From: Candidatus Poribacteria bacterium
Lineage (GTDB): Bacteria; Poribacteria; WGA-4E; PCPOR2b
DNA: 64,000 nucleotides
NCBI GenBank assembly: GCA_965208325.1
Contig: OZ242326.1
Span: 2,080,001-2,144,000, forward strand
Direction of reading: 5' to 3'
The notes beneath the pieces were generated by a model. That model saw nothing but the letters and a program-made list of their open reading frames with translations, was not told where the DNA came from and searched no databases. Shown here in pieces: positions 2,891 through 56,196 of the stretch (position 1 is its first letter; each line of letters opens with the position of its first letter). The position numbers were made by a program, and so were the translations under genes.

Positions 2891-3731
2891 TAGATTACTC
2901 CTTCATGAAAGAAATTTAAAAACGACAAAATGACTGTGTCAAATTTTTGCAACCTGATACAGTTTTCAACGTCAAATCCTTTGTATTCCCTCTCGGGAAG
3001 ATGGTTAAGACGAATATTCAGACCGCTGTTGGAAACGCCTTCGAGCCAACAACAATTCCAAATTGAAATTGAAACGTTGTTTGAAATCAGATGCGAGCAT
3101 TTTCGATTGACAAACGCTCTTGTGTCTTGCTTTTCCTGAAACGTGGATTATAGTCTACCAAATTTTACAATTTTTGTAAAGAAAAATCTTCACATAAATT
3201 GAAAAATTCGGTCATTAGTAAATCCTGCTTCAACGAGCATTGCTGAAAACTCAAGCGTTGGTTATTGGAATAACTGTTTCAGATAAAGTCTTCCTGCCAA
3301 CAATAGCCGCAGCCCGTTGATTCACATGCGCAGGTTTACGCTTTTTGCAAAGGATTGCCGGTGGGGCCGGTATTTACCGATTCAAACGCGAGCCAAAGTT
3401 CTCTACCGGACACATATACAGTTTTAGTCATTTTCCGCCGCCACGCTCAATCTCAAACTAAGGCATTTGGGCGGAAAAACCAGACACATACAGAAACTCT
3501 CGCCCATTCTCTTTTTGAGAATGGCGCAAGTATAGCACATTACAAAAAACTTTGCAACAAAAAATTGAACGGTATTTCTCAACCGCAAGCAAATGTTCAG
3601 AAAACTCGAATTCATGCTTGTTAGCGCAACCGAACGAACTCTGAAATCTTTGTAAATCAATCCCAATATCAATTAGCTATGCTCTTAAGCCTACGTGAGG
3701 CGAATTACTTGCCTGTTACGGCAATTTCCGG

Positions 3732-4628
3732 TTAATCTCCCCATGCGGCGCCTCGGGGAACCCACAACCATTGCCCTTCATAAATTCGATCGCGGTCAAA
3801 ATCGTAATCATCTTGATTAGCTTCGACCAGCCTTGGCCAGAGTTTGTCGTTGTCATAAACCTCCGGGCGAGCGGCAATCGTTGGGAGTGTATCACCTTTA
3901 CGAACATGGTATCGGTTCACCTTCTCAGGTGAAGCAATTGTAAAGCTAAACGAATAAGGTTCAGACATAGCGTTGCCAGCCGTGTCCGTGACACCGGACA
4001 CAGTAACACTGTATTGCCGCCCTGCCCGCATCGGTGCGTCCGAAACAAAGGTCACCATATTGTCGGATCCGCCGATATTTCCCAAAACTGGACCGGATTC
4101 CTGGCTCATTGAGTCCGGGGTCGGTTCAACTTGAACTGCAATAGCGCCTGATTGACTATCGACGTTTTCGTCAAAAGTAATCGACACGGCAACATTCACC
4201 TTCAGTGAATCATCATACTCAGCTATTATTGTCCCATCTGAAGGTTCTGACGCAGTAATGTTCGGCGGGGTAGCATCAGTGTAAACGAATTTTTGACCTA
4301 ATGTCACCGGTTCTTCAGGTTTACTGTTGTTTGTTACCACAACCGCAGCGGATTGCCCCGCCATGCCCGCCGGCGTTACTGCTGTAATTTCAGTTTCGCT
4401 TGGAACATTTACATTGGTGCCCGCTTTCCCGTCGAAAGTCACAACCACACCGTTCTTCATGTCAAACTTGTCGCCTGAGATTCTGACCGTTGTCCCACCT
4501 GTCTCCGGCCCTTCAGTTGGGCTCATACTTTGCGGTTCAGGTGGAGAAGCGCAACCCGCGCAGCCGGATATCCATGCGGCCACAAATGTCAAAGCAACAA
4601 TTGTTGTGAAATTTCTGAATTTCCTCAT
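3732..4628 (-). CDS. Lipoprotein with IPT/TIG, Big_5 Ig-like and C-terminal LysM domains
   Basis: Lipobox ISGC; SPTEGPETGGTTVRISG (IPT); VTDTAGN (Big_5); YHVRKGDTLPTIA...LVEAN...IYEGQWLWVP (LysM). Confidence 0.8.
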   Translation of the reverse strand: MRKFRNFTTIVALTFVAAWISGCAGCASPPEPQSMSPTEGPETGGTTVRISGDKFDMKNGVVVTFDGKAGTNVNVPSETEITAVTPAGMAGQSAAVVVTNNSKPEEPVTLGQKFVYTDATPPNITASEPSDGTIIAEYDDSLKVNVAVSITFDENVDSQSGAIAVQVEPTPDSMSQESGPVLGNIGGSDNMVTFVSDAPMRAGRQYSVTVSGVTDTAGNAMSEPYSFSFTIASPEKVNRYHVRKGDTLPTIAARPEVYDNDKLWPRLVEANQDDYDFDRDRIYEGQWLWVPRGAAWGD

Positions 4629-4721
4629 GCGTTTTTCTCCTGAACAATTAAGGTTTGAAAATCACCCAATGCGAAGTCGCGTAGCGATTAAAGCGGTTAT
4701 ATTCAATCGGCAATTTCTTCT

Positions 4722-4750
4722 AGTATACAGGCTAACACGAACTTTGTCAA
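4722..4750 (-). promoter_or_regulatory. Sigma70-type promoter of the LysM lipoprotein gene
   Basis: Minus strand TTGACA-17 bp-TATACT. Confidence 0.65.
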
Positions 4751-4812
4751 CAGCAAAACGGACTGAATGTGACCAAATGCCGTTTGCCGTCTGCGACGCG
4801 TAGGCCTAAGTT

Positions 4813-6072
4813 CTATAGTCTGACAATATCTGCACCAACGTTCGCTAATTTCGTTTCGATAGATTCATATCCCCGATCGATGTGGTAGACACGAGCTACA
4901 ACGGTTTCACCTTTTGCCACCATACCGGCGAGCACCAAAACCGCCCCGGCCCGAAGGTCGGATGCCATGACTGGCGCTCCGCTAAGCTTATCGACGCCGC
5001 GAATTATGGCGCGGTTACCCTCAATGTCGATATTGGCGCCCATACGGTTTAGTTCGCTGACATGCATGAATCGATCTGTATGTATAGTCTCGGTAACTGT
5101 ACTGATTCCAGGGGTAACGCTGAGAAGTCCAATAATCTGCGCCTGCATGTCTGTCGGGAAACCTGGAAATGCCTCTGTATTGACGTCGATAGCGGCTAGT
5201 TGGCGAGGCGTTGTGACACGAACGCCGTTCTCTTCCCAATCCAATTGAACACCCGCTTCAAGTAGTTTGTCTGAAACTGCACCAAGGTGATTGCGGAGCG
5301 CATTTTTCACAAAGACATCACCGTTAGTAATTGCACTCGCTACCATGAATGTGCCTGTCTCAATGTCATCTGGAATCACGGTATACTCAGTGCCTCGTAA
5401 TTGCTTGACACCGTGAATTTTCAGAACTGGTGTTCCAACGCCTTTTATTTCTGCTCCCATCGCATTGAGAAAGTTCGCAAGATCGACGATGTGCGGTTCA
5501 CGAGCGGCATTGCGAATGGTTGTTGCGCCTTCCGCCAATGCAGCGGCCATCATGACGTTCGCTGTTGCGCCGACGCTTGGCCCATACCTGCCCTTCAAAT
5601 TCATTTTAGCGCCAATCAATCGATCGGCTTCCGCAGTTATGTAACCGCCTTCGACCGTAATTCTTGCTCCCAGGCACTCTAACCCTTTCAAGTGCAGGTC
5701 TATAGGACGCGGCCCAATCGAGCATCCACCAGGAAACGCGACTTTTGCCTTACCTAAGCGCGCGACGAGGGGACCCAAAACGTACACTGATGCGCGCATC
5801 TTCCGAACCAAATCATAGGGCGCTTCGTAAGCCATGCGGTTTATCGGCTTGATATGGAGCGTGGCATTTTTGTACTTCGCCGTTGCTCCCAGCGTTTCAA
5901 GGACACCGCATAGCGTCTCAACGTCCCTGAGATTTGGAACATTGTGGATGACGCTTGCGCCATCCGCTAAGATTGCTGCAGCAATGGCAATGGGAAGCGC
6001 GGCGTTTTTTGAACCGCTGACGGATACGGTGCCTTCAAGCCGTTTGCCGCCATTGATAACTAATTTATCCAT
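4813..6072 (-). CDS. murA: UDP-N-acetylglucosamine 1-carboxyvinyltransferase
   Basis: GSKNAALP, KMRAS, PGGCSIGPRPIDLH (catalytic Cys), PGFPTDMQAQ, DLRAGA, HIDRGYE. Confidence 0.97.
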   Translation of the reverse strand: MDKLVINGGKRLEGTVSVSGSKNAALPIAIAAAILADGASVIHNVPNLRDVETLCGVLETLGATAKYKNATLHIKPINRMAYEAPYDLVRKMRASVYVLGPLVARLGKAKVAFPGGCSIGPRPIDLHLKGLECLGARITVEGGYITAEADRLIGAKMNLKGRYGPSVGATANVMMAAALAEGATTIRNAAREPHIVDLANFLNAMGAEIKGVGTPVLKIHGVKQLRGTEYTVIPDDIETGTFMVASAITNGDVFVKNALRNHLGAVSDKLLEAGVQLDWEENGVRVTTPRQLAAIDVNTEAFPGFPTDMQAQIIGLLSVTPGISTVTETIHTDRFMHVSELNRMGANIDIEGNRAIIRGVDKLSGAPVMASDLRAGAVLVLAGMVAKGETVVARVYHIDRGYESIETKLANVGADIVRL

Positions 6073-6391
6073 CGTACAGCCTCCTTGTTATCTAATCGCC
6101 GGTGTCATGTCGTATCAAGCACGTGTGAGGACAAATTGACAAGTCTCGATTTTACCTATGTTCCATTTCCTTAATGGCATGACACTAGCAAAATGACTTC
6201 CTTGTGTTATGAACCAACGATATCAACACGCCGTTCGTTTCGCTGAAGGCTAAACCGGTTTTAAATTCAGATGCACGGTGTCAAGAGAACGCCGCGTCTG
6301 CATTCCGCCGCAGGTTATGGATTTGCTGCGGGGATATTGACTGATGAGTGTTGATCGGCGAGGAATTGTGGTTCCGTTTGCGTATCGGTTT

Positions 6392-6955
6392 CTAGAAGGG
6401 TCTGCCCATCCGGTTGAGGGCTGCAGGGACTTCATTCCTAACGGGTTTGATTGTTTTCAGATACGCCCACATCGCCTTAAGATCGGCATCGCTCATGTTT
6501 GCGTAAGCGTTTTTGGGCATCGGCGGGAGAATGCGCCGATTATTTTTGTCACCTTGATGGAATCCGGTCCGCATTGCATCAATAAACATTTTTTCTGTCC
6601 ATTCACCCAGTCCTGTTTCGTTATGGGGCGTCAGATTCGCGGCAAATGTTGTTCCGAAGGGACCGGAAAATGCGGCTAGTGTAGGAGCAGTTAACATGAA
6701 AATATCCTGTTGTATCAAACTAAAATTGTATTTGGGATGTGGTGCATTTGCCGGATGTCCGGCGAGGTACATTTTCATGTTTGGTTCAGCTCGTTCGCGC
6801 GGTGTGTGACAATGACCACAAGCCCCGACCGCATCCACAAGATATTTTCCGCGTTTGACCATGTCACCTTGGCTTTGCGCACGATTAAAAGTAAGTATCG
6901 TGAGCGTTAATGTTGAAATAATTATTGCCCCAAGTATCCACCTTTTTTTGCTCAT
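6392..6955 (-). CDS. Exported c-type cytochrome (one CXXCH)
   Basis: Signal peptide; RGKYLVDAVGACGHCHTP, ANLTP..TGLG.W, PPMP (possible axial Met). Confidence 0.85.
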   Translation of the reverse strand: MSKKRWILGAIIISTLTLTILTFNRAQSQGDMVKRGKYLVDAVGACGHCHTPRERAEPNMKMYLAGHPANAPHPKYNFSLIQQDIFMLTAPTLAAFSGPFGTTFAANLTPHNETGLGEWTEKMFIDAMRTGFHQGDKNNRRILPPMPKNAYANMSDADLKAMWAYLKTIKPVRNEVPAALNRMGRPF

Positions 6956-7213
6956 CCCTTTTGTCCCCTTTTTATGATGGTTAGTAAGCCAACTCAAAAA
7001 ACCTCAAACCATAGTGAATTATATCACTGCTTATATCCGTTTTCAATATTGGCTTTTGCCCATGCACCGATTGAACCCAATTATTTTGATTGCCCTAAGC
7101 ATTCAAATTCGGCTTGATCCTACGAGCGAAGTTTGATAGACTTTTCACGAGAAATAAGAGCGAATTTATGCTTTGCTTTCAACACAGCACATCAACGCGG
7201 AATGAGGCCAATT

Positions 7214-45346: not shown

Positions 45347-45597
45347 CACGGTCTCCTTCACGGTTTTTGTCAACGCAGCATTATAACAGAGATATTGATA
45401 CGGCTCAACGGAAAACCGAAATGCTCTAAGATCGCCCTTGAATCTCAATAGCGAAGTTGCTATAATTTCACACATGGAAGACATCTTGGTGCCAGGCGTA
45501 AATCGCCACGGGAGCTACTGTCTTTAGGTATTTGCCGGCTTTAACAGAATGATTGAGGAACAGGTAACTTTGTAAATAATCGATGGATTGGTGCTCC

Positions 45598-46767
45598 ATG
45601 AGTAGCCGACGCTTACAAATAACATTGCAGCCTGAGGTGCTGCGCTGGGCGCGAGAACGAGCCAAACTTCAGCCCGAAGAACTTGCGCAAAAAATGGGCG
45701 TGAAACTGCCGGACCGAGTGTTGAAGTGGGAGCATGATGGGGCGATTAGCGTTGCGCAGGTGGACAGGCTTGCTAAATGCACTTATACGCCGTTGGGGTT
45801 TCTATATTTGGAGCGGCCGCCTGACGAGCGTCTGCCAATTACGGACTTCCGAACCCGAGAGGGTACCCCTCCGCCAAGCCCCGATCTGCTTGAGACCGTA
45901 TATCTGATGCAGCGGCGGCAAGCTTGGATGCGCGATGAACTCATTGAAGACGGCGCTGAACCGTTAGACTTTGTCGGGGCATATGGGTTGCATTCCCTAC
46001 CTCGGGACGTGTCGACTGCTATGCGCGCGGTTCTACAACTTACCGATGGGTGGACAAATACACAGAGCACATGGAGCGGTGCGCTCAGATTGCTCCTAGA
46101 CCGGCTTGATACCGCCGGCGTATTGGATTGCTTTAACGGTGTAGTAGGCAATAACACGCACCGAAAGCTGAATCCAAATGAATTTCAGGGTTTTGCCTTG
46201 GCGGATGAATATGCCCCGCTTGTCTTCGTTAATAGCGCCGATTTCAAAGCCGCGCAAATCTTTACCCTAGCTCATGAGTTTGCTCATCTCTTCATCGGAA
46301 AGAGCGGAGTCTCCAACTTCAGAATCCTTCAACCGGCGTCAAATATAACCGAAAGGTTCTGCAACGAAGCTGCGGCGGAGTTTCTAATACCGGAAGAAAA
46401 ATTTCATGAACTATGGCCTCATGTGGAGCGAGCGAACGATTGCTATCAGGCTATCGCAGGTAGATTCAAAGTGAGTTCCGTGGTAGCCGCACGCCGAGCG
46501 TTTGACCTCAACCTAATCGGCAGAGATGTATTCTTCAGGTTCTATCAGGAATACGATGATAAGGAAAAACGCAGCATTCGGGAGAGCGAAGTCGGTGGAG
46601 GGAATTTCTGGAGTATTCAAAGATGGCGAATAGGCCCCCGTTTTGCCGCTGCAATCGTGCGAGCGGTCAGGGAACGACGTATGCTCTATCGCGAGGCGTA
46701 CAACCTCACAGGGTTGAAAGGCGAAACCTTTGAAAACATGCCTGAGAAACTAGGGGTGTCGATTTGA
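45598..46767 (+). CDS. HTH-XRE plus ImmA/IrrE metallopeptidase
   Basis: N-terminal LRWARER HTH; FTLAHEFAH; ERFCNEAAAEFL. Confidence 0.9.
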   Translation: MSSRRLQITLQPEVLRWARERAKLQPEELAQKMGVKLPDRVLKWEHDGAISVAQVDRLAKCTYTPLGFLYLERPPDERLPITDFRTREGTPPPSPDLLETVYLMQRRQAWMRDELIEDGAEPLDFVGAYGLHSLPRDVSTAMRAVLQLTDGWTNTQSTWSGALRLLLDRLDTAGVLDCFNGVVGNNTHRKLNPNEFQGFALADEYAPLVFVNSADFKAAQIFTLAHEFAHLFIGKSGVSNFRILQPASNITERFCNEAAAEFLIPEEKFHELWPHVERANDCYQAIAGRFKVSSVVAARRAFDLNLIGRDVFFRFYQEYDDKEKRSIRESEVGGGNFWSIQRWRIGPRFAAAIVRAVRERRMLYREAYNLTGLKGETFENMPEKLGVSI

Positions 46768-47279
46768 TGCACACCCGTCGCCCCTTGTACGTGCTAGATT
46801 CGGATGTCTTAATTGGGGCACACCGCCGCCATTACGCACTGGACCTGTGACCGGGATTTTGGGATTGCTTGATACATTTTTGTGGAGAAAACCGGGTGCG
46901 GAGTATTGATCGGGTGCGAGACGAGCTAATTCTCAATTCAGATCGACTGTCTGAGTGGGCGAAGCAGGCACCGGACAATCTGTTTGTATCCACAGCAGAT
47001 GAATTGGTTATAGATACTTACATGGAAATGAATAAATGGGTAGCAGAAAATGGGCAATTCCAACCGCGAGCCAAAGCAGAATTTGCAAACGCTGCCGACG
47101 GATGGGTTGCAGCCTACGCTAGTGTCCACAAAGCAATCGTGATTACCCATGAAGTGTTCAGAGAGAATGTAAAAAGAAGGGTACCCCTCCCAAACGTTTG
47201 CCGACAATTTAACACTAATTATCAGGATACGTTCGAAATGTTGCGCAAGCTAGAGGTACGTTTTGACTGGATCCGTTAA
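46767..47279 (+). pseudogene. DUF4411 (PIN-like) protein interrupted by an in-frame TGA at 46848-46850
   Basis: ATG overlaps the upstream stop (TGATG). Reads MHTRRPLYVLDSDVLIGAHRRHYALDL*PGFWDCL and continues in frame into ORF 46869 (ADGWVAAYA..ITHE..LPNVC). Confidence 0.8.
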
Positions 47280-50509: not shown

Positions 50510-50631
50510 CCAAGGTACAGGCAATCCTTCAACACTGTGATTATTGGGCATGAAACTGAAAATATGACTGGCAAATCTCGTTATAGTCATTTCGGTTCAT
50601 GTTTATGCAAGGAGTGATCAACTGATTGATA

Positions 50632-50730: not shown

Positions 50731-51021
50731 ATGAACAAAGATTAAGTTTTGAAGGTACTCCGGGCGCACAAATCGATTCTTACGCAACGCTTTGGCGTAA
50801 CAAACCTCGCCGTATTCGGCTCAGCCGCGCGTGACGAGATGTCCTCCGACAGTGACATTGACATCTTGGTTCGATTCGACCGGCCGGGGACCTCAAAAGC
50901 CTACTTCGGCGTGCAATTTTACTTGGAGGACCTGCTGGGGCATCCAGTCGATCTGGTCACTGACAAGGCGTTGCGGGTTGAGCTACGCCCTCATGTTGAG
51001 CAGGAGGCTATTGATGTGTAG
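50731..51021 (+). pseudogene. Minimal nucleotidyltransferase (MNT antitoxin-type) with a stop at codon 5 (could restart at TTG 50749)
   Basis: ATG AAC AAA GAT TAA GTT TTG AAG (MNKD*VLK...); FGSAARDE..SDIDILV, LEDLLG.PVDLV. No HEPN ORF follows. Confidence 0.7.
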
Positions 51022-51104
51022 GTTCGGCGCGAAACCCCACGGCGGACGTTCTTTCTTTTAGAACACAATCGTATTCACGATAGGGAATCTATTTGTAGAT
51101 TAGA

Positions 51105-51230
51105 AATCAGCATCAAATGAACTTTTTGGTTACCAAATGACATGACGGATAAATCACATTTGCTGCTAACAGATGCGCAACAAATTCGTTTGTTGCGCAC
51201 AAAATGAAAAATATGCACGACAAAACTCTC
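51105..51230. repeat. Fragment (3-4 units) of the palindromic array found at 52.6-53.5 kb
   Basis: ...TTTGCTGCTA-ACAGA-TGCGCAACAAA TTCG TTTGTTGCGCA-CAAAATGAAAAATA-TGCACGACAAA. Confidence 0.85.
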
Positions 51231-51240
51231 TTTTTCACAT

Positions 51241-51422
51241 AGGAATTACGCACTTCAGTGATGAACAACAATCGTTGCTCTCTGCCAAAAGGTAGTAGGT
51301 ATACGCCGTATGCCGTAACCCTCGTTCCGATGCTTTCATCTGGTTTCATAGCAATACGTACATGTAACGGCACACGGAGTGTGCCTACTACTATGGTTTG
51401 AGCGTTCAACTAAGTAAGTGCT
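51241..51422 (-). mobile_element. MITE-like element, family B copy 2, carrying a REPIN-like inverted REP pair
   Basis: Ends AGGAATTACG...GTAAGTGCT; inverted pair GTAGTAGGTATACGCCGTATGCCGT (51292-51316) and ACGGCACACGGAGTGTGCCTACTAC (51367-51391). Confidence 0.6.
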
Positions 51423-51469
51423 CTACCTAATCACGTTCCACTAAACCAAATATCAATGACAATTTTATA

Positions 51470-52582
51470 ATGCCACCTGTTGATTATCATTACGGCCAAT
51501 TTCCTCCAGAGAATCTAGATTGGCTCCAACTCGTCCCGTATATCGGTCCAGCATCGCGTGCGCTAGGCGATTTCAGGTGGTTACTCAACGCCATACCCAA
51601 TGCCGATGTTCTGCTGGCGCCGTTGTCGGCTCACGAAGCCGTGCTATCCAGCCGAATTGAGGGGACGCAAGTGACTCTGGGGGAAGTTCTGGAATTCGAG
51701 GCTGACAACGGACGTCATCAGCCTCCGGAGCGCCGCCATGAGATTCGGGAGGTGTACAACTATCGTCTCGCCATACACCAAGCCACTGAACTGCTGGAGG
51801 AGCTGCCGCTTTGCGGTCGGCTACTTAAGAAGGTGCATGCCATATTGATGGAGGACGTGCGCGGCAAGCACAGACAATCAGGTGAGTTTAAATCAACGCC
51901 AAACTTCATTGGTCGGCCAGGCTGTACGGTAGAAACCGCCAAATTCCTCCCTTGCACACCGGACAAGCTGCCCGATGGGTTGACCGCGTGGGAAAAGTTT
52001 CTTCACAACGATTATCCAGACCGCCTTGTTCAGCTTGCGGTGGCGCATGCAGAATTTGAAGCGCTCCACCCGTTCTACGACGGTAACGGACGCCTCGGGC
52101 GTATGTTAATGCCTCTTTTTCTTTACGAGCGGGAACTATTGAACTACCCGTCATTTTATATGAGCGAATACCTCGAAGCCCATCGAGAAGAATACTACGA
52201 GCGGCTATTGGCAGTTTCACGTGATGACGACTGGACCGGTTGGTGCCGCTTTTTCCTTCAAGCACTTGAAAAGCAGGCGGAGGAAAACACGCGAAAAGCA
52301 AAAGCTATCCTCAATCTTTACGATGAACGGAAACGTTGGATTATTGAGAATACTCGTTCACAATACGCGGTCCCTTCTTTGGACTTCATTTTCCGCCAAC
52401 CTATTTTCCGGTCACCGGATTTCGGAAAAGATCAAGGGGTACCCCGTCACTCTGCTCGGCGCATTTTGGGTGAGATTCGAAACGAATTGTTTATTGAATG
52501 GTTACCACCATCAGGTTCGCGACCGGCAATCTTCGCCTACAAAGAACTACTTGACATTGTAGAACAGAAACGCACATTTTAG
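51470..52582 (+). CDS. Fic family protein with N-terminal Fic_N/DUF4172 region
   Basis: EAVLSSRIEGT (SxxxEG inhibitory-type motif) and HPFYDGNGRLGR. Confidence 0.93.
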   Translation: MPPVDYHYGQFPPENLDWLQLVPYIGPASRALGDFRWLLNAIPNADVLLAPLSAHEAVLSSRIEGTQVTLGEVLEFEADNGRHQPPERRHEIREVYNYRLAIHQATELLEELPLCGRLLKKVHAILMEDVRGKHRQSGEFKSTPNFIGRPGCTVETAKFLPCTPDKLPDGLTAWEKFLHNDYPDRLVQLAVAHAEFEALHPFYDGNGRLGRMLMPLFLYERELLNYPSFYMSEYLEAHREEYYERLLAVSRDDDWTGWCRFFLQALEKQAEENTRKAKAILNLYDERKRWIIENTRSQYAVPSLDFIFRQPIFRSPDFGKDQGVPRHSARRILGEIRNELFIEWLPPSGSRPAIFAYKELLDIVEQKRTF

Positions 52583-52636
52583 TGGTTTGCATGTGAGTAA
52601 GGTGTGGCACTTGACAATCGCAATACGGATAAAAAC

Positions 52637-53520
52637 GAGCAATGAATCGCTTTGTTGCTAATGAATCGAGAAATACTAGCAACAAATCACTTTGTTACTA
52701 ACAGATGCACAACAAATCCGTTTGTTGCTAACGAATCGAGAAATATTAGCAACAAATCACTTTGTTGCTAACAGATGCACAACAAATCCGTTTGTTGCTA
52801 ACGAATCGAGAAATATTAGCAACAAATCACTTTGTTGCTAACAGACGCACAACAGTTTCGCTTGTCGGACACAAAACGGGAAATATGACCGACAAATGGA
52901 TTTGTTGGTCACAGGTGTCCAACAAATCTGTTTGCCGGACACGAATTGGAAAATATGACCGACAAATTGCGTTACCTGCTTATGTATGAGCAGCATATGC
53001 TTTTTGTTGCTCACAAAACCCAATATATGAGCAACAAATGGATTTGTGGTGCACAGATGCACAACAAATTGGATTGTTGGACACAAATCGGGAAAAATGT
53101 CCTACAATTGTTTATCGGCCACAGATGTCCAACAAATCTGTTTGCCGGACATGAAACGGAAAACATGACCGACAATTCACGTTACCTGCCCATGTATGAG
53201 CAGCAAATCACGTTTGTCGCTCACAAAACCCAATATATGAGCAGCAAATCACTTTGTTGCTAAAAGACGCACAACAGTTTCGCTTGTTGGACAAAAATCG
53301 GGAAATATGTCCGACAAATTAATTTGTCGGTCACAGATGTCCAACAAATCTGTTTGTCGGACACGAATTGGAAAATATGACCGGCAAATTGCGTTACCTG
53401 CTCATGTATGAGTAGCACATCACGTTTGTCGCTCACAAAAGCCAATATTTGAGCAACAAATCACTTTATTACTAACAGATGCACAACAAATTCGTTTGTC
53501 GAACAAAAATCGGGAAAAAT
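52637..53520. repeat. Non-coding hierarchical array of about 25 palindromic units
   Basis: Units such as TAGCAACAAA-TCAC-TTTGTTGCTA, TGACCGACAAA-TGGA-TTTGTTGGTCA and TGTCCAACAAA-TCTG-TTTGTCGGACA; starts alternate about 30 and 40 bp apart. Confidence 0.93.
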
Positions 53521-53651
53521 GTTAAAATATTCCGCTTTTCAACTAACCGCTGACCTCTCTGTCCGATCGATTGATCCTTCGCGCTTCGTTGGGTTGATTA
53601 CTTATCAGGGGGTATCTGAACGCATGTAAATATAATTTTAAATGTATAAAA

Positions 53652-53686
53652 CCACTAGCCACTGACCACTGGTCACTGGCAACTGT
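53652..53686. repeat. Heptamer tandem repeat (5 imperfect units)
   Basis: CCACTAG CCACTGA CCACTGG TCACTGG CAACTGT. Confidence 0.75.
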
Positions 53687-53709
53687 TTCTTAATAAGGAG
53701 AGTTTCTTA

Positions 53710-56196
53710 ATGAAAATAACCCTGAAGTTAGTAATCATCTTACTAGCCGTATCTTCAATAACGGCGTCTGCTCAAGAATTCTCGCAATGGAACTTACCGG
53801 AGGGTGCGAAACAACGCCTCGGCAAGGGATGGATACGAGATATTCAGTATTCTCCTACTCGCCCGCATCTCGCGGTTGCAGGTTCAATCGGGATTTGGAT
53901 ATATGACACTACGACCAACCGCGAGATTGATTTGTTGACCGGGCACACGCGAACGGTCAATGCGATAGCGTATTCTCCGGATGGCAACTTGATAGCAAGT
54001 GGGAGCAGCGACGACTCCATCCGGATCTGGGACGCGGTCACTGGCGATGAAATTAGTGCCATCACCGATTTGGACGATACTGTTTGGACTTTGGCTTTTA
54101 GTGAGGATGGCGCAACGCTTGCCAGCGGGAGTAACGATTATTTAATTCGTATTTGGGATGTTAACTCAGGCGAGGAACTTAAAAAGTTGAACGGACATAC
54201 CGATTGGGTAAATAGTGTGGCTTTCAGTCCGACACACAATGTCCTCGCAAGTGGAAGCTGGGATCATACTGTTCGTTTGTGGGATTTGGACACAGGCGAG
54301 GAAATCCGAACCTTCCCCCCGCATTCATCTTTGGTGCGGTCTGTGGCTTTCAGCCCCGATGGGAACATGCTCGCCAGTTCGGATTTTGACGCCGTAATCC
54401 GCTTGTGGGATGTTGAAGCTGGAACAGAAATCAGAACATTCAGGGGCCACACTTCGGATGTTTTCGACATCGCCTTCTCGCTGGACGGCAAGACACTCGC
54501 GAGCGCTAGCGAGGACGACACCATTCGGTTGTGGAATACCGAAACGGGCGAAACCGTCAAGACAATCACCGGACATACGGCTGATGTCTACAGCATTGTA
54601 TACAGTCATGACGGCAAGACGCTAGCCAGCGGCGGATATGACGCTACCATTAAATTTTGGGATGCCGAGACCGGAGACGAGATTAGCAGCATCACAGGGC
54701 ACACGGATCTTGTTTTGAGCGTGGTTTTCACGCCTGACGGCCGCACGCTAGTCGGAAGGAGCTGGGACAAAACCGTGCGCCTCTGGAACACTGAAACGGG
54801 TCAGCTTGATAATGTGCTGATAGGGCATACGGATGATGTAGATGTGGTCGTGTTCAGTCCTGACGGCGGTAAAATTGCGAGCGGCAGCCAAGATGACACC
54901 GTACGTGTATGGAATGCGAACACCGGAGAACTTCTGAGAACGCTGGTTGGACACTGGGCTTACCTGATTAGTTTAGCCTTCAGTCCCGACGGGAGTATAC
55001 TGGCAAGCGGCAGCGAGGACGATGTCGTTCGATTATGGCATACGAACACAGGCCTGCGATTGGATTTTCTTTACGGCCACGCGGCTGGCGTTGAGAGCAT
55101 TGCTTTTCATCCCGATGGGGAGATTCTCGCCAGCGGCAGCCGCGACGACACGATTCGAATATGGGATGTCGCTAGTGGTAGAACACAGATCCGCATTGAG
55201 GAACATGACGGAGATGTACTAAGCGTCGATTTCAATTTTGACGGTTCATTGCTCGCCAGCGGCAGCCAAGACCGAACCATCAGGCTGTGGAATCCTACAA
55301 CGGGCGATGCGATTCGGACACTAAACGGGCACGAGAGCGGCGTCCGAACCCTTAAGTTTAGCCCAGATGGACGCACGATTGCCAGCGGGAGCCGGGATAA
55401 CACCGTTCGTGTGTGGAACGCCGCTACAGGCGAACTTATGAACACGTTTGCCGGACATACGGCTGGTGTTAGGAGCGTTGCTTTCAGCCCTGACGGCAGC
55501 ACAATCGCCAGTGGAGGATGGGACGGCACGGTGTTGATTTGGGACGCGCCGATACTGCCTCCGGAGGTTATCGAAGAGCCGCTGGCCGCGGATTTAGACG
55601 GAGATGGAACAGTCGATATAGCCGACCTCGTGCTGGTCGCTTCAGCCTTTGGCGAATCAGGGGAGAACCTAACAGCCGATGTGAATGGAGACGGGGAAGT
55701 TGACATAGCGGACCTAGTAGCGGTTGCTGGCGCTTTCGGAACGGAGATTGCCGCATCACCGGCTCGTCACGATATTACAGCGGTGCTGAACGAAGCGGAC
55801 GTTAGGGAGTGGCTTTTGCAAGCTCAGCAGTTAGGGCTAACTGATTCGAATTCGCAGAGAGGCATTCTCTTCTTGGAACAACTCCTCTTAGCGTTCCGAC
55901 CATCCGAAACAGCGTTGTTGGCGAACTATCCAAATCCGTTCAATCCGGAAACATGGATTCCGTATCACCTTGCCGAAGACGCCGATGTGCAGGTTACAAT
56001 TTATGACACGAACGGCAAGTTAGTCAGGCGAATAGATTTGGGAGTTCAACCTGCGGGCTACTACACCGAACAACGCCTTGCAGCATATTGGGATGGCCAT
56101 AATCAGCGGGGCGAGGCCGTAGCAAGCGGTGTGTATTTCTATACCTTGTCCACCGCGGGTTATGTGGAAACGAGGAAAATGACGATACAGAAATAG
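53710..56196 (+). CDS. Secreted 14-blade WD40 protein with dockerin-like EF-hand pair and C-terminal FlgD-Ig/T9SS-CTD-like domain
   Basis: Signal peptide; GH...V..VAFSPDG..LASGS.D.TIRLWD repeats; ADLDGDGTVDIADLVLVA twice; ANYPNPFNPETWIPY...TRKMTIQK. Confidence 0.92.
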   Translation: MKITLKLVIILLAVSSITASAQEFSQWNLPEGAKQRLGKGWIRDIQYSPTRPHLAVAGSIGIWIYDTTTNREIDLLTGHTRTVNAIAYSPDGNLIASGSSDDSIRIWDAVTGDEISAITDLDDTVWTLAFSEDGATLASGSNDYLIRIWDVNSGEELKKLNGHTDWVNSVAFSPTHNVLASGSWDHTVRLWDLDTGEEIRTFPPHSSLVRSVAFSPDGNMLASSDFDAVIRLWDVEAGTEIRTFRGHTSDVFDIAFSLDGKTLASASEDDTIRLWNTETGETVKTITGHTADVYSIVYSHDGKTLASGGYDATIKFWDAETGDEISSITGHTDLVLSVVFTPDGRTLVGRSWDKTVRLWNTETGQLDNVLIGHTDDVDVVVFSPDGGKIASGSQDDTVRVWNANTGELLRTLVGHWAYLISLAFSPDGSILASGSEDDVVRLWHTNTGLRLDFLYGHAAGVESIAFHPDGEILASGSRDDTIRIWDVASGRTQIRIEEHDGDVLSVDFNFDGSLLASGSQDRTIRLWNPTTGDAIRTLNGHESGVRTLKFSPDGRTIASGSRDNTVRVWNAATGELMNTFAGHTAGVRSVAFSPDGSTIASGGWDGTVLIWDAPILPPEVIEEPLAADLDGDGTVDIADLVLVASAFGESGENLTADVNGDGEVDIADLVAVAGAFGTEIAASPARHDITAVLNEADVREWLLQAQQLGLTDSNSQRGILFLEQLLLAFRPSETALLANYPNPFNPETWIPYHLAEDADVQVTIYDTNGKLVRRIDLGVQPAGYYTEQRLAAYWDGHNQRGEAVASGVYFYTLSTAGYVETRKMTIQK

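Follow-up and report, generated by a model that had tools for sequence, protein, structure and literature searches.

A chain of alternating TGnnnnACAAA half-sites beside a SoFic-type Fic gene, a candidate cluster of cognate DNA sites with counterparts across prokaryotes

Introduction

A 64,000-nucleotide stretch of a Candidatus Poribacteria genome (GenBank assembly GCA_965208325.1, contig OZ242326.1, positions 2,080,001 to 2,144,000 of the forward strand; hereafter the window) carries a dense tandem array of palindromes just downstream of a gene for a Fic protein. What are these palindromes, and what reads them? A sequence-only reading of the window had described a phased array of co-varying palindromes and had proposed either an iteron- or centromere-like platform for a protein or a multi-hairpin substrate made of RNA or single-stranded DNA (ssDNA). 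The analysis presented here favours a protein, and a specific one. We infer, with a probability of about 0.6, that the array is an expanded cluster of cognate DNA sites to which the neighbouring SoFic-type protein would bind.

Fic enzymes of the SoFic type form a known family of anti-phage defence and serve as a model of AMPylation control. Three recent studies show that the winged helix of such enzymes binds DNA and that DNA binding or dimerisation alters their activity, and none of them gives a general recognition sequence. The half-site TGnnnnACAAA, with spacers that follow a 4/4/4/14 grammar, is a concrete and testable candidate ligand for one large SoFic clade.

Architecture of the array

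The main array (positions 52636–53525 of the window, no strand assigned) begins 56 bp past the Fic stop codon and consists of 25 units of 26 bp that follow the template TG-N4-ACAAA-N4-TTTGT-N4-CA. Linkers of 4 nt (mostly CAGA) and 14 nt (such as CGAATCGAGAAATA) separate the units in turn, and the distance between unit starts is 30 and 40 bp by turns, or 31 and 41 bp where the loop is 5 nt long. The elementary part of the array is the 11-bp half-site TGnnnnACAAA in strictly alternating orientation, rather than the 26-bp unit, and there are about 50 such half-sites. When the half-site is written as L and its complement as R, the array reads L-4-R-4-L-4-R-14-L and so onward, with spacers of 4, 4, 4 and 14 bp. 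One 70-bp period is thus made up of a wide palindrome, TTTGTnnnnCA-N14-TGnnnnACAAA, and a narrow tail-to-tail pair.

Tandem Repeats Finder (TRF) detects periods of 70 bp and 212 bp. The 70-bp dimer forms a young sub-block at 52651–52854 (2.9 copies, 97% matches; no strand) and is called a second time over 52682–53521 (11.9 copies, 66% matches). The 212-bp period corresponds to an older higher-order block of three dimers at 52813–53522 (3.4 copies, 82% matches; no strand). The array reached its 25 units through tandem duplication at both levels, that of 70 bp (2.9 copies, 97%) and that of 212 bp (3.4 copies, 82%). The two periods therefore indicate growth in at least two waves, with the 5'-terminal triplet of 70-bp copies as the youngest part. 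Eight of the 25 units carry 4–5 mismatches to the template. The sequence GTTACCTG, found at 52971, 53181 and 53393, is the mark of a degenerate unit whose right arm pairs with the next unit across a 5-nt linker.

Much of the layout given in the sequence-only reading is recovered in this description, namely some 25 palindromic units downstream of Fic, unit starts alternating between about 30 and 40 bp, a 70-bp dimer, a block of about 210 bp and the recurrence of GTTACCTG at the three places named. The further block of about 420 bp has no TRF period to match it.

The array stands out sharply from the genome. Its 890 bp hold 22 exact half-sites (24.7 per kb), compared with 695 in the whole 4.7-Mb genome (0.148 per kb). 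The latter density is near the ~0.12 per kb that arithmetic gives as the chance expectation for seven fixed bases.

The motif across prokaryotes

The architecture is not peculiar to this bacterium. A pattern with 19 fixed bases, ACAAA-N4-TTTGT-N4-CA-N4-TG-N4-ACAAA, was scanned against one genome per prokaryote species and was found at at least 119 loci, where about four are expected by chance. The reversed pattern, used as a control in an order-level search, was found in none of 159 genomes. The loci among the matches listed, to which the counts of this section refer, belong to Spirochaetia, Gammaproteobacteria, Chloroflexota, Acidobacteriota, Planctomycetota, Verrucomicrobiota, Bacteroidota, Cyanobacteria, Actinomycetota and other groups, and one belongs to a Methanobacteriota archaeon; Enterobacterales and Shewanella are not represented among them.

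Chains contain from 3 to about 50 half-sites, and a minimal cluster of four half-sites is the commonest form. The 70-bp dimer grammar recurs at three loci (L138, L088 and L067), and pure 30-bp arrays are found with 22 units (L062), 17 units (L142) and 5–7 units (L044 and L085). The R-14-L spacing, which is absent from the search pattern, is present at 39 loci. Its linker has the consensus CTTTTGGCGAAAAG, in which a T-tract and an A-tract surround a GC centre, and such A/T-tract linkers are consistent with DNA bending round a protein. The outer 4 nt of the linker pair with each other at 2.25 positions on average, compared with 1.15 in shuffled linkers, and at least three of the four are paired in 47% of cases as against 8%. 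The linker of the window array is an asymmetric, A-rich variant shared with a few other loci.

Among 521 distinct half-sites, there is little variation at the fixed positions (T1 97%, G2 95%, A7 92%, C8 96%, A9 99%, A10 99% and A11 89%), and the N4 segment shows no more than a bias towards AGC. What is conserved of the invariant bases is their sequence and not their pairing, which argues for sequence-specific recognition.

The SoFic-type gene and its association with the motif

The gene next to the array (51470–52582, plus strand) encodes a protein of 370 residues that comprises a Fic_N domain, a Fic core with the HPFYDGNGRLGR motif and, at its C-terminus, a winged helix. Pfam assigns it Fic_N and Fic, and PADLOC recognises it over its full length as SoFic (E 2.5e-103). 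Its matches in the Protein Data Bank include SoFic (3eqx, E 2.2e-38) and EcSofic (9vjc, E 4.2e-34). In an AlphaFold2 model with an average predicted local distance difference test (pLDDT) score of 89.7, the winged helix is formed by residues 300–365. By these homologies, the protein is predicted to be a class II Fic AMP-transferase of the known anti-phage defence family.

Proteins of this kind recur beside the motif. Open reading frames (ORFs) of about 370 residues are strikingly frequent in the flanks of motif loci, and Pfam annotation of 66 flanking proteins from 42 loci identifies 12 as Fic, 11 of which also carry Fic_N. No other neighbour recurs among these 66 proteins, which include one tyrosine integrase, one serine recombinase, several restriction-modification subunits and housekeeping proteins. 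A hidden Markov model (HMM) of 12 motif-adjacent proteins (the window Fic and those of 11 scan loci), each of which matches Fic_N and Fic of Pfam, has a match beside the motif at 61 of 119 loci among the matches listed, i.e. at 44 of the 80 flanked loci and 17 of the 39 short ones. The motif-adjacent Fic proteins have a median identity of 46% across phyla. A search beside the motif for the Fic C-terminal domain on other effectors gave 59 matches, 58 in Fic proteins and one in a weak fragment, and revealed no domain swap. The half-site architecture travels with this Fic clade through many phyla, and the TGnnnnACAAA motif belongs to one Fic clade.

The position of the chain relative to the gene is also conserved. 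A chain of at least three half-sites lies within 400 bp downstream in 40 of the 55 loci that hold the Fic 3' end. The first half-site is at most 16 nt from the stop codon in 22 of these loci, and in 11 loci it is placed at -4 or -2 of the stop codon, with the last codons and the stop inside the site. Chains upstream of the gene, which end 5–230 bp before its start, are found at 11 loci, and five loci have chains on both sides. The 3' end of Fic is thus the majority position of the cluster. The window shows both arrangements, as a three-unit cluster (51143–51240, no strand) lies 230–330 bp upstream of the Fic start, with a dispersed repeat inserted between them. The central unit of this cluster (51174–51199) is a perfect 11+4+11 palindrome and the two outer units are degenerate.

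Beyond the Fic stop codon, 49 of 53 loci have ORFs of at least 30 residues that run across the chain, on both strands and with no conserved frame. Their similarity between loci is short (14–32 residues) and crosses strands, as a palindromic DNA motif would give. The 53 loci provide no evidence of a conserved peptide downstream of the Fic stop, in what is a weak test.

Symmetry, helical phase and folding

Complementarity within the array was scored at five outer or variable positions, for which random pairing gives 2.48 ± 0.20. The score is 4.33 of 5 across the 14-nt linker, with at least 4 in all 12 pairs, 3.28 within the unit and 1.83 across the 4-nt linker. The value of 4.33 therefore identifies the wide palindrome TTTGTnnnnCA-N14-TGnnnnACAAA as the symmetric object. 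The N4 segments of all loci lead to the same assignment. The two arms of a unit share 1.99 positions of N4, compared with 2.33 for non-adjacent half-sites of the same locus, and narrow pairs share 2.14, compared with a same-locus baseline of 2.34. For wide pairs, the identity is 2.89 against a baseline of 2.29 (36 loci, one-sided Wilcoxon p 0.0016). N4 is also specific to the locus, with an identity of about 2.3 of 4 positions within loci and 1.29 between them.

Covariation within the unit is not general, and symmetry is confined to the half-sites that flank the 14-nt linker. Of the co-varying arms reported in the sequence-only reading, those across the 14-nt linker stand (4.33 of 5; 2.89 versus 2.29) and those within the unit do not hold up as a general feature (1.99 versus 2.33). 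The same division applies to the observation that right arms complement the next left arm, which is true of the 14-nt linker (4.33 of 5) and not of the 4-nt linker (1.83 versus 2.48 at random). Selection on symmetry, deduced there from compensatory changes, is tenable only for half-sites flanking the 14-nt linker; the invariant bases are kept as sequence. The N4 symmetry of the wide palindrome fits a homodimer that reads both arms, and it fits the formation of a cruciform or a hairpin equally well.

Arithmetic with 10.5 bp per turn shows that 30, 40 and 70 bp correspond to 2.86, 3.81 and 6.67 turns. Successive sites thus wind around the helix and regain their phase only every 210 bp, or 20 turns, which is the length of the higher-order block. 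The idea that spacings of about three and four turns would place the sites roughly on one face of the DNA was thus inexact.

One 212-nt block folds with -64.9 kcal/mol on either strand (z -4.8 on the plus strand, z -3.7 on the minus strand). A search of positions 51000–55000 against Rfam in E-value mode returned only chance-level microRNA and snoRNA models, and the best score within the array, for a microRNA model, is 23.1 bits against a gathering score of 80, which leaves the array outside the Rfam families. A sigma-70 scan found two promoter-like sites, where 5.1 are expected, and none within the array. A terminator scan found one terminator-like hairpin, at 52976–52993.

The locus in this genome and in its relatives

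Within the 4.7-Mb genome, a pattern search found no cluster of core palindromes outside this locus, and BLAST found a single further significant copy outside the array, at 51159–51196. Other copies of the array repeat are limited to sites about 1.4 and about 2 kb upstream. The nearer of the two is the upstream cluster described above, and the farther (50545–50590, no strand) is a degenerate fragment, comprising a 14-nt linker and one unit, between the genes for a TonB-dependent receptor and a small nucleotidyltransferase.

An assembly artefact, which the sequence-only reading had named as a possible source of the array, was checked with Logan contigs of four sequencing runs (X2, X4, X5 and X6, of which X5 comes from another study). 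Positions 52816–53800 are covered by contigs of X5 with two differing letters and of X2 and X4 with none, and an artefact is excluded for this part. The three near-identical 70-bp copies at about 52650–52815 occur in all four runs in pieces of 44–100 nt only, and the copy number of this triplet is that of the assembly alone.

A sponge-metagenome contig of run X6, which belongs to a third study, joins position 51119 to position 53165 with 16 other letters between them; it is an allele without Fic that resembles the one in genome G002 described below. Further X6 joints lie within the array (skips of 168 and 253 and a backward step of 418) and indicate array-length variants among related strains.

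Related genomes, in which the sequence-only reading had suggested looking for further arrays and their gene neighbours, do contain them: the same architecture occurs at the 119 or more loci described above, with Fic as the recurrent neighbour, and 6–7 units are present at the homologous place in three genomes of the same genus (G001, G002 and G003). In G001 and G003, the gene order is type III res, M78/HTH (helix-turn-helix) peptidase, DUF4411, small MNT nucleotidyltransferase, units and type III mod. In G002, the units lie between the nucleotidyltransferase and a WD40 gene. Two genomes from another family of the order (G035 and G044) have two units about 60 nt before the start of mod. None of these five unit loci has the Fic gene. 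Elsewhere in their genomes, G001 and G003 have only paralogues of 31–35% identity, and none was found in G002 with the window Fic as query. G002 is collinear with the window at 92% identity up to 51211 and at 90% again from 53314. Between these points lies an indel of 2.1 kb, which takes in the rest of the upstream cluster, the dispersed repeat, Fic and 19 units and has each of its breakpoints within a unit.

Discussion

The association of the half-sites with one Fic clade across phyla, their conservation at the level of sequence and the DNA binding of published relatives suggest that they are most economically read by the winged helix of the adjacent Fic protein. CccR of Yersinia pseudotuberculosis is likewise a Fic protein with a C-terminal HTH domain, and its dimer binds inverted repeats beside its own gene, namely two 10-bp repeats at a distance of 26 bp in the promoter, which it represses (PMC9755527). 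Unlike the family described here, CccR has a single promoter operator of unrelated sequence; the present sites are 11-bp half-sites with 4- and 14-bp spacers in chains of 3 to about 50, located mostly at the 3' end of the gene. SoFic itself binds 100 bp of DNA upstream of its own gene as a dimer and not as a monomer, and its AMPylation of EF-Tu depends on dimerisation (bioRxiv 10.64898/2026.07.09.737422). The window protein is a full-length member of this defence family, represented by SoFic of S. oneidensis and EcSofic of E. coli, for which no DNA motif has been published. CbFic2 of Coxiella burnetii, a class II Fic with a winged helix, is stimulated and dimerised by DNA (PMC10628234). It differs in that random DNA alone was used, the specific motif being unknown according to its authors, and in that it is a secreted effector acting on histones (PMC10628234). 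An antitoxic activity has been mapped just downstream of EcSofic: a 2025 paper reports that AS1 of E. coli H397, described as a 47-residue protein from an ORF 'downstream of Sofic', neutralises Sofic toxicity (PMC12249575). Neither AS1 nor the complex could be purified, and Sofic was not recovered from co-expression (PMC12249575).

Operator sites of an autoregulating Fic-HTH protein are already known. The half-site, the spacing grammar, the anchoring at the stop codon, the spread across phyla and the expansion to arrays are new. Full-text searches of the literature, which did not cover the promoter-fragment supplement of the bioRxiv SoFic study, found neither the motif nor an array of repeats next to SoFic genes described. 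RptR, which binds TAGCTA and regulates islands of type I restriction-modification, is unrelated (PMC12255303).

If the neighbouring protein is the reader, Fic dimers would bind the half-sites via their winged helices, and the upstream cluster would mediate repression of the Fic promoter, as in CccR. The chain at the 3' end would be a roadblock or a loop anchor for the Fic gene. A precedent for operators at the 3' end of a gene is lacI, at whose 3' end an auxiliary lac operator causes truncation of the lacI mRNA. The chain could also, or instead, be a dock at which the toxic enzyme is kept on DNA as a dimer beside the gene that encodes it, with a capacity that would rise with copy number. Anchoring at the stop codon hints at a regulatory arrangement (3'-end operator, roadblock or loop, protein docking) that has yet to be considered for these toxins.

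A bolder form of the docking idea, offered tentatively and rather unlikely to be right, has the chain act as a stoichiometric dock of DNA through which the toxin itself is regulated, in addition to its transcription. New SoFic dimers would be captured in cis, the number of sites would set the amount of enzyme held, and loss of the DNA or competition for it during phage attack would release or switch the AMP-transferase. As a corollary, such sites, rather than the 47-residue peptide of AS1, may account in whole or in part for the antitoxic effect reported for the DNA just downstream of E. coli Sofic, and the motif suggests a check of this reported antitoxin.

Several observations weigh against the array being a set of SoFic sites. 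The main array is downstream of the gene, 56 bp past its stop, and not in the promoter. Three congeners (G001–G003) retain 6–7 units without this Fic, and no Fic was detected at 36 of the 80 flanked motif loci among the matches listed. Several N4 types occur within one array, and the N4 symmetry across the 14-nt linker is explained equally well by a hairpin or cruciform. The association is also much weaker when approached from the protein side. In 80 metagenome loci that encode Fic relatives of 28–51% identity, a strict chain is found in only two (in none of the 80 after shuffling). Matches to a position weight matrix (PWM) of the half-site are enriched in the flanks of relatives with at least 41% identity (2.35 and 2.94 per kb, compared with 0.61 in the gene body and 0.69 further out). 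This enrichment is restricted to relatives at or above that identity, and at least two flank matches are present in only four of the 14, several of which are cut at contig ends. Examined by eye, the eight best relatives (L152–L158 and L161) have related, degenerate half-sites on one side of the gene. A plasmid homologue at 52% identity has degenerate sites only, and a Thermus plasmid homologue (39% identity) has a single half-site-like match upstream, which is uninformative. A search of a phage collection gave 13 distant matches (MloA of streptococcal prophages).

A first rival holds that the palindromes act as hairpins of RNA or ssDNA, either as a stabiliser or terminator in the 3' untranslated region of the Fic mRNA or as an RNA antitoxin akin to the repeats of type III toxin-antitoxin systems. 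The chain begins at the stop codon and would be co-transcribed with the gene, N4 is symmetric across the 14-nt linker, the wide palindrome often continues into that linker (2.25 versus 1.15 in shuffled linkers, with three or more of four paired in 47% versus 8%), the 212-nt block folds at -64.9 kcal/mol with z -4.8, and an antitoxic activity is reported from the DNA downstream of Sofic in E. coli (PMC12249575). We nevertheless consider a hairpin function unlikely. Bacteria and an archaeon share the invariant bases as sequence, covariation is absent between the two arms of the core palindrome (1.99 versus 2.33 within the locus), the fold of the minus strand is just as good (-64.9 kcal/mol, z -3.7), 11 loci have clusters upstream of the gene too, and no Rfam match approaches its gathering score. 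The toxin, moreover, is no endoribonuclease, and the repeats follow its gene rather than precede it; with a Fic toxin, an array after the gene and strands that fold alike, the locus does not resemble ToxI-like repeats. The multi-hairpin substrate of the sequence-only reading accordingly gains little support, as the strands fold equally, Rfam gives no match and clusters occur upstream too. Its other proposal, an iteron- or centromere-like platform, is right in so far as protein binding is the best supported function. In sopC of the F plasmid, 12 repeats of 43 bp, each with an inverted repeat, form an array of this centromere or iteron type. Such arrays resemble the present one as tandem inverted-repeat protein sites beside the gene of the binding protein. 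They differ in their partner, which here is an enzyme-regulator fusion, the SoFic-type Fic, in a chromosomal defence island without partition or replication genes; a plasmid iteron or partition centromere is ruled out, with no Rep, ParA or ParB gene among the neighbours scanned. A CRISPR array, dismissed from the outset, is ruled out too by the linkers of 4 and 14 nt, which are themselves conserved.

A further rival views the clusters, which lie on both sides of the gene here and at five other loci, as sites of recombination or as the termini of a mobile Fic cassette, and the array as an accumulation of such termini, in keeping with units that start with TG and finish with CA, with the breakpoints of the G002 indel inside units (51211 and 53314), with the X6 contig that joins 51119 to 53165 and with the setting in a defence island. 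This is quite unlikely, as recombinases and transposases are not consistent neighbours (the 66 proteins of 42 loci include a single tyrosine integrase and a single serine recombinase), chains vary from 3 to about 50 half-sites, anchoring at the stop codon in a fixed register is unexpected of a transposon end, and ordinary homologous recombination between any repeats explains the indel. There is a similarly small chance that the array in this genome is a functionless satellite, in which former binding sites were expanded by replication slippage and persist by chance. Copy number does differ strongly among close relatives (25 units versus 6–7), G001–G003 have arrays without the cognate Fic, and many units are degenerate (4–5 mismatches in eight of 25). 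Yet 22 exact half-sites survive in 890 bp, 52816–53800 is nearly identical in a run of another study, and other phyla have, independently, large arrays beside intact Fic genes (L062 with 22 units, L142 with 17, and L044 and L085 with 5–7); a satellite is compatible with the proposed origin of the array by duplication and not with this recurrence. Far less probable than either is an element of the repetitive extragenic palindromic (REP) or bacterial interspersed mosaic element (BIME) type, kept by a REP-associated tyrosine transposase (RAYT). BIMEs of enterobacteria are tandem palindromes in alternating orientation with two alternating linker lengths, and the imperfect alternating palindromes and two linker classes of the array resemble them. 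REPs are tied to RAYT genes and exist in hundreds of dispersed copies, and the genome does have two Y1 transposase genes (Y1_Tnp, at 1.96 and 3.32 Mb). In contrast, the present family has a single locus per genome and is linked to a Fic gene, neither Y1 gene has half-sites in its surrounding 3.3-kb locus, and no GTAG-type head is seen. The match to REP or BIME families that could have undone the sequence-only reading is thus absent, and the single-locus distribution effectively refutes this explanation.

Other SoFic-like subfamilies and features of the locus

Palindromes of other sequence lie beside other SoFic-like genes. Two copies of ACGTTAATAA-N9-TTATTAACGT precede a second SoFic-like gene in G000, G001, G003 and G029 (G000:C1:2843996-2844241, L144 at about 1100–1500, and also L146, L147 and L148; Fic_N 83 bits). 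The pair is retained in these four genomes of two families amid diverged surrounding DNA. A third Fic paralogue, about 30% identical (L150 in G003 and L151 in G001), is flanked on both sides by an AT-rich palindromic repeat of the TATGTATA type, a two-sided layout that resembles the one at the window Fic. An 11-bp inverted repeat with a 30-bp spacer lies beside a member of a distant SoFic-like subfamily (L167). By these sequences, it looks like a rule that every gene for a winged-helix Fic is accompanied by palindromes peculiar to it.

In this sponge symbiont, a member of the Candidatus Poribacteria group, the array marks a defence island prone to recombination. Its neighbours are genes for a TonB-dependent receptor, an MNT-type nucleotidyltransferase, Fic and WD40 proteins. 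The island is decaying (45583–47279 and 50749–51021; L009 and L011). It has an HTH-M78 peptidase (RmrA/CapP-like according to PADLOC), an MNT-type nucleotidyltransferase (PDC-S09) without a HEPN partner and a DUF4411 protein that is shortened at its N-terminus (136 residues versus 172–182 in relatives). Type III res and mod, which surround the same module in G001 and G003, are both lost in the window. About 60 nt past the stop codon of the nucleotidyltransferase (51021–51110; L005 at 1440–1490) are conserved between two families of the order and are non-coding by the ORF listing. They could be the remnant of a missing partner gene or a regulatory element.

The dispersed repeat between the upstream cluster and the Fic start (51289–51411) is about 120 nt long and forms a hairpin. 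It has 31 BLAST high-scoring segment pairs in the genome, its own place included, and weak microRNA-like Rfam matches on both strands. The summed contig depth on this repeat is ~3,000–7,000 in X2 and X4 and ~230–575 in X5 and X6, and on the adjacent Fic gene it is ~8–30 (X2, X4 and X5). Beyond the array, a 14-bp tandem repeat (53651–53682; two copies, TRF score 42) with an overlapping palindrome, rich in CCACTG, precedes the WD40 gene, and a similar CCACT-rich stretch precedes the mod gene in G044 (L013 at about 1560–1600).

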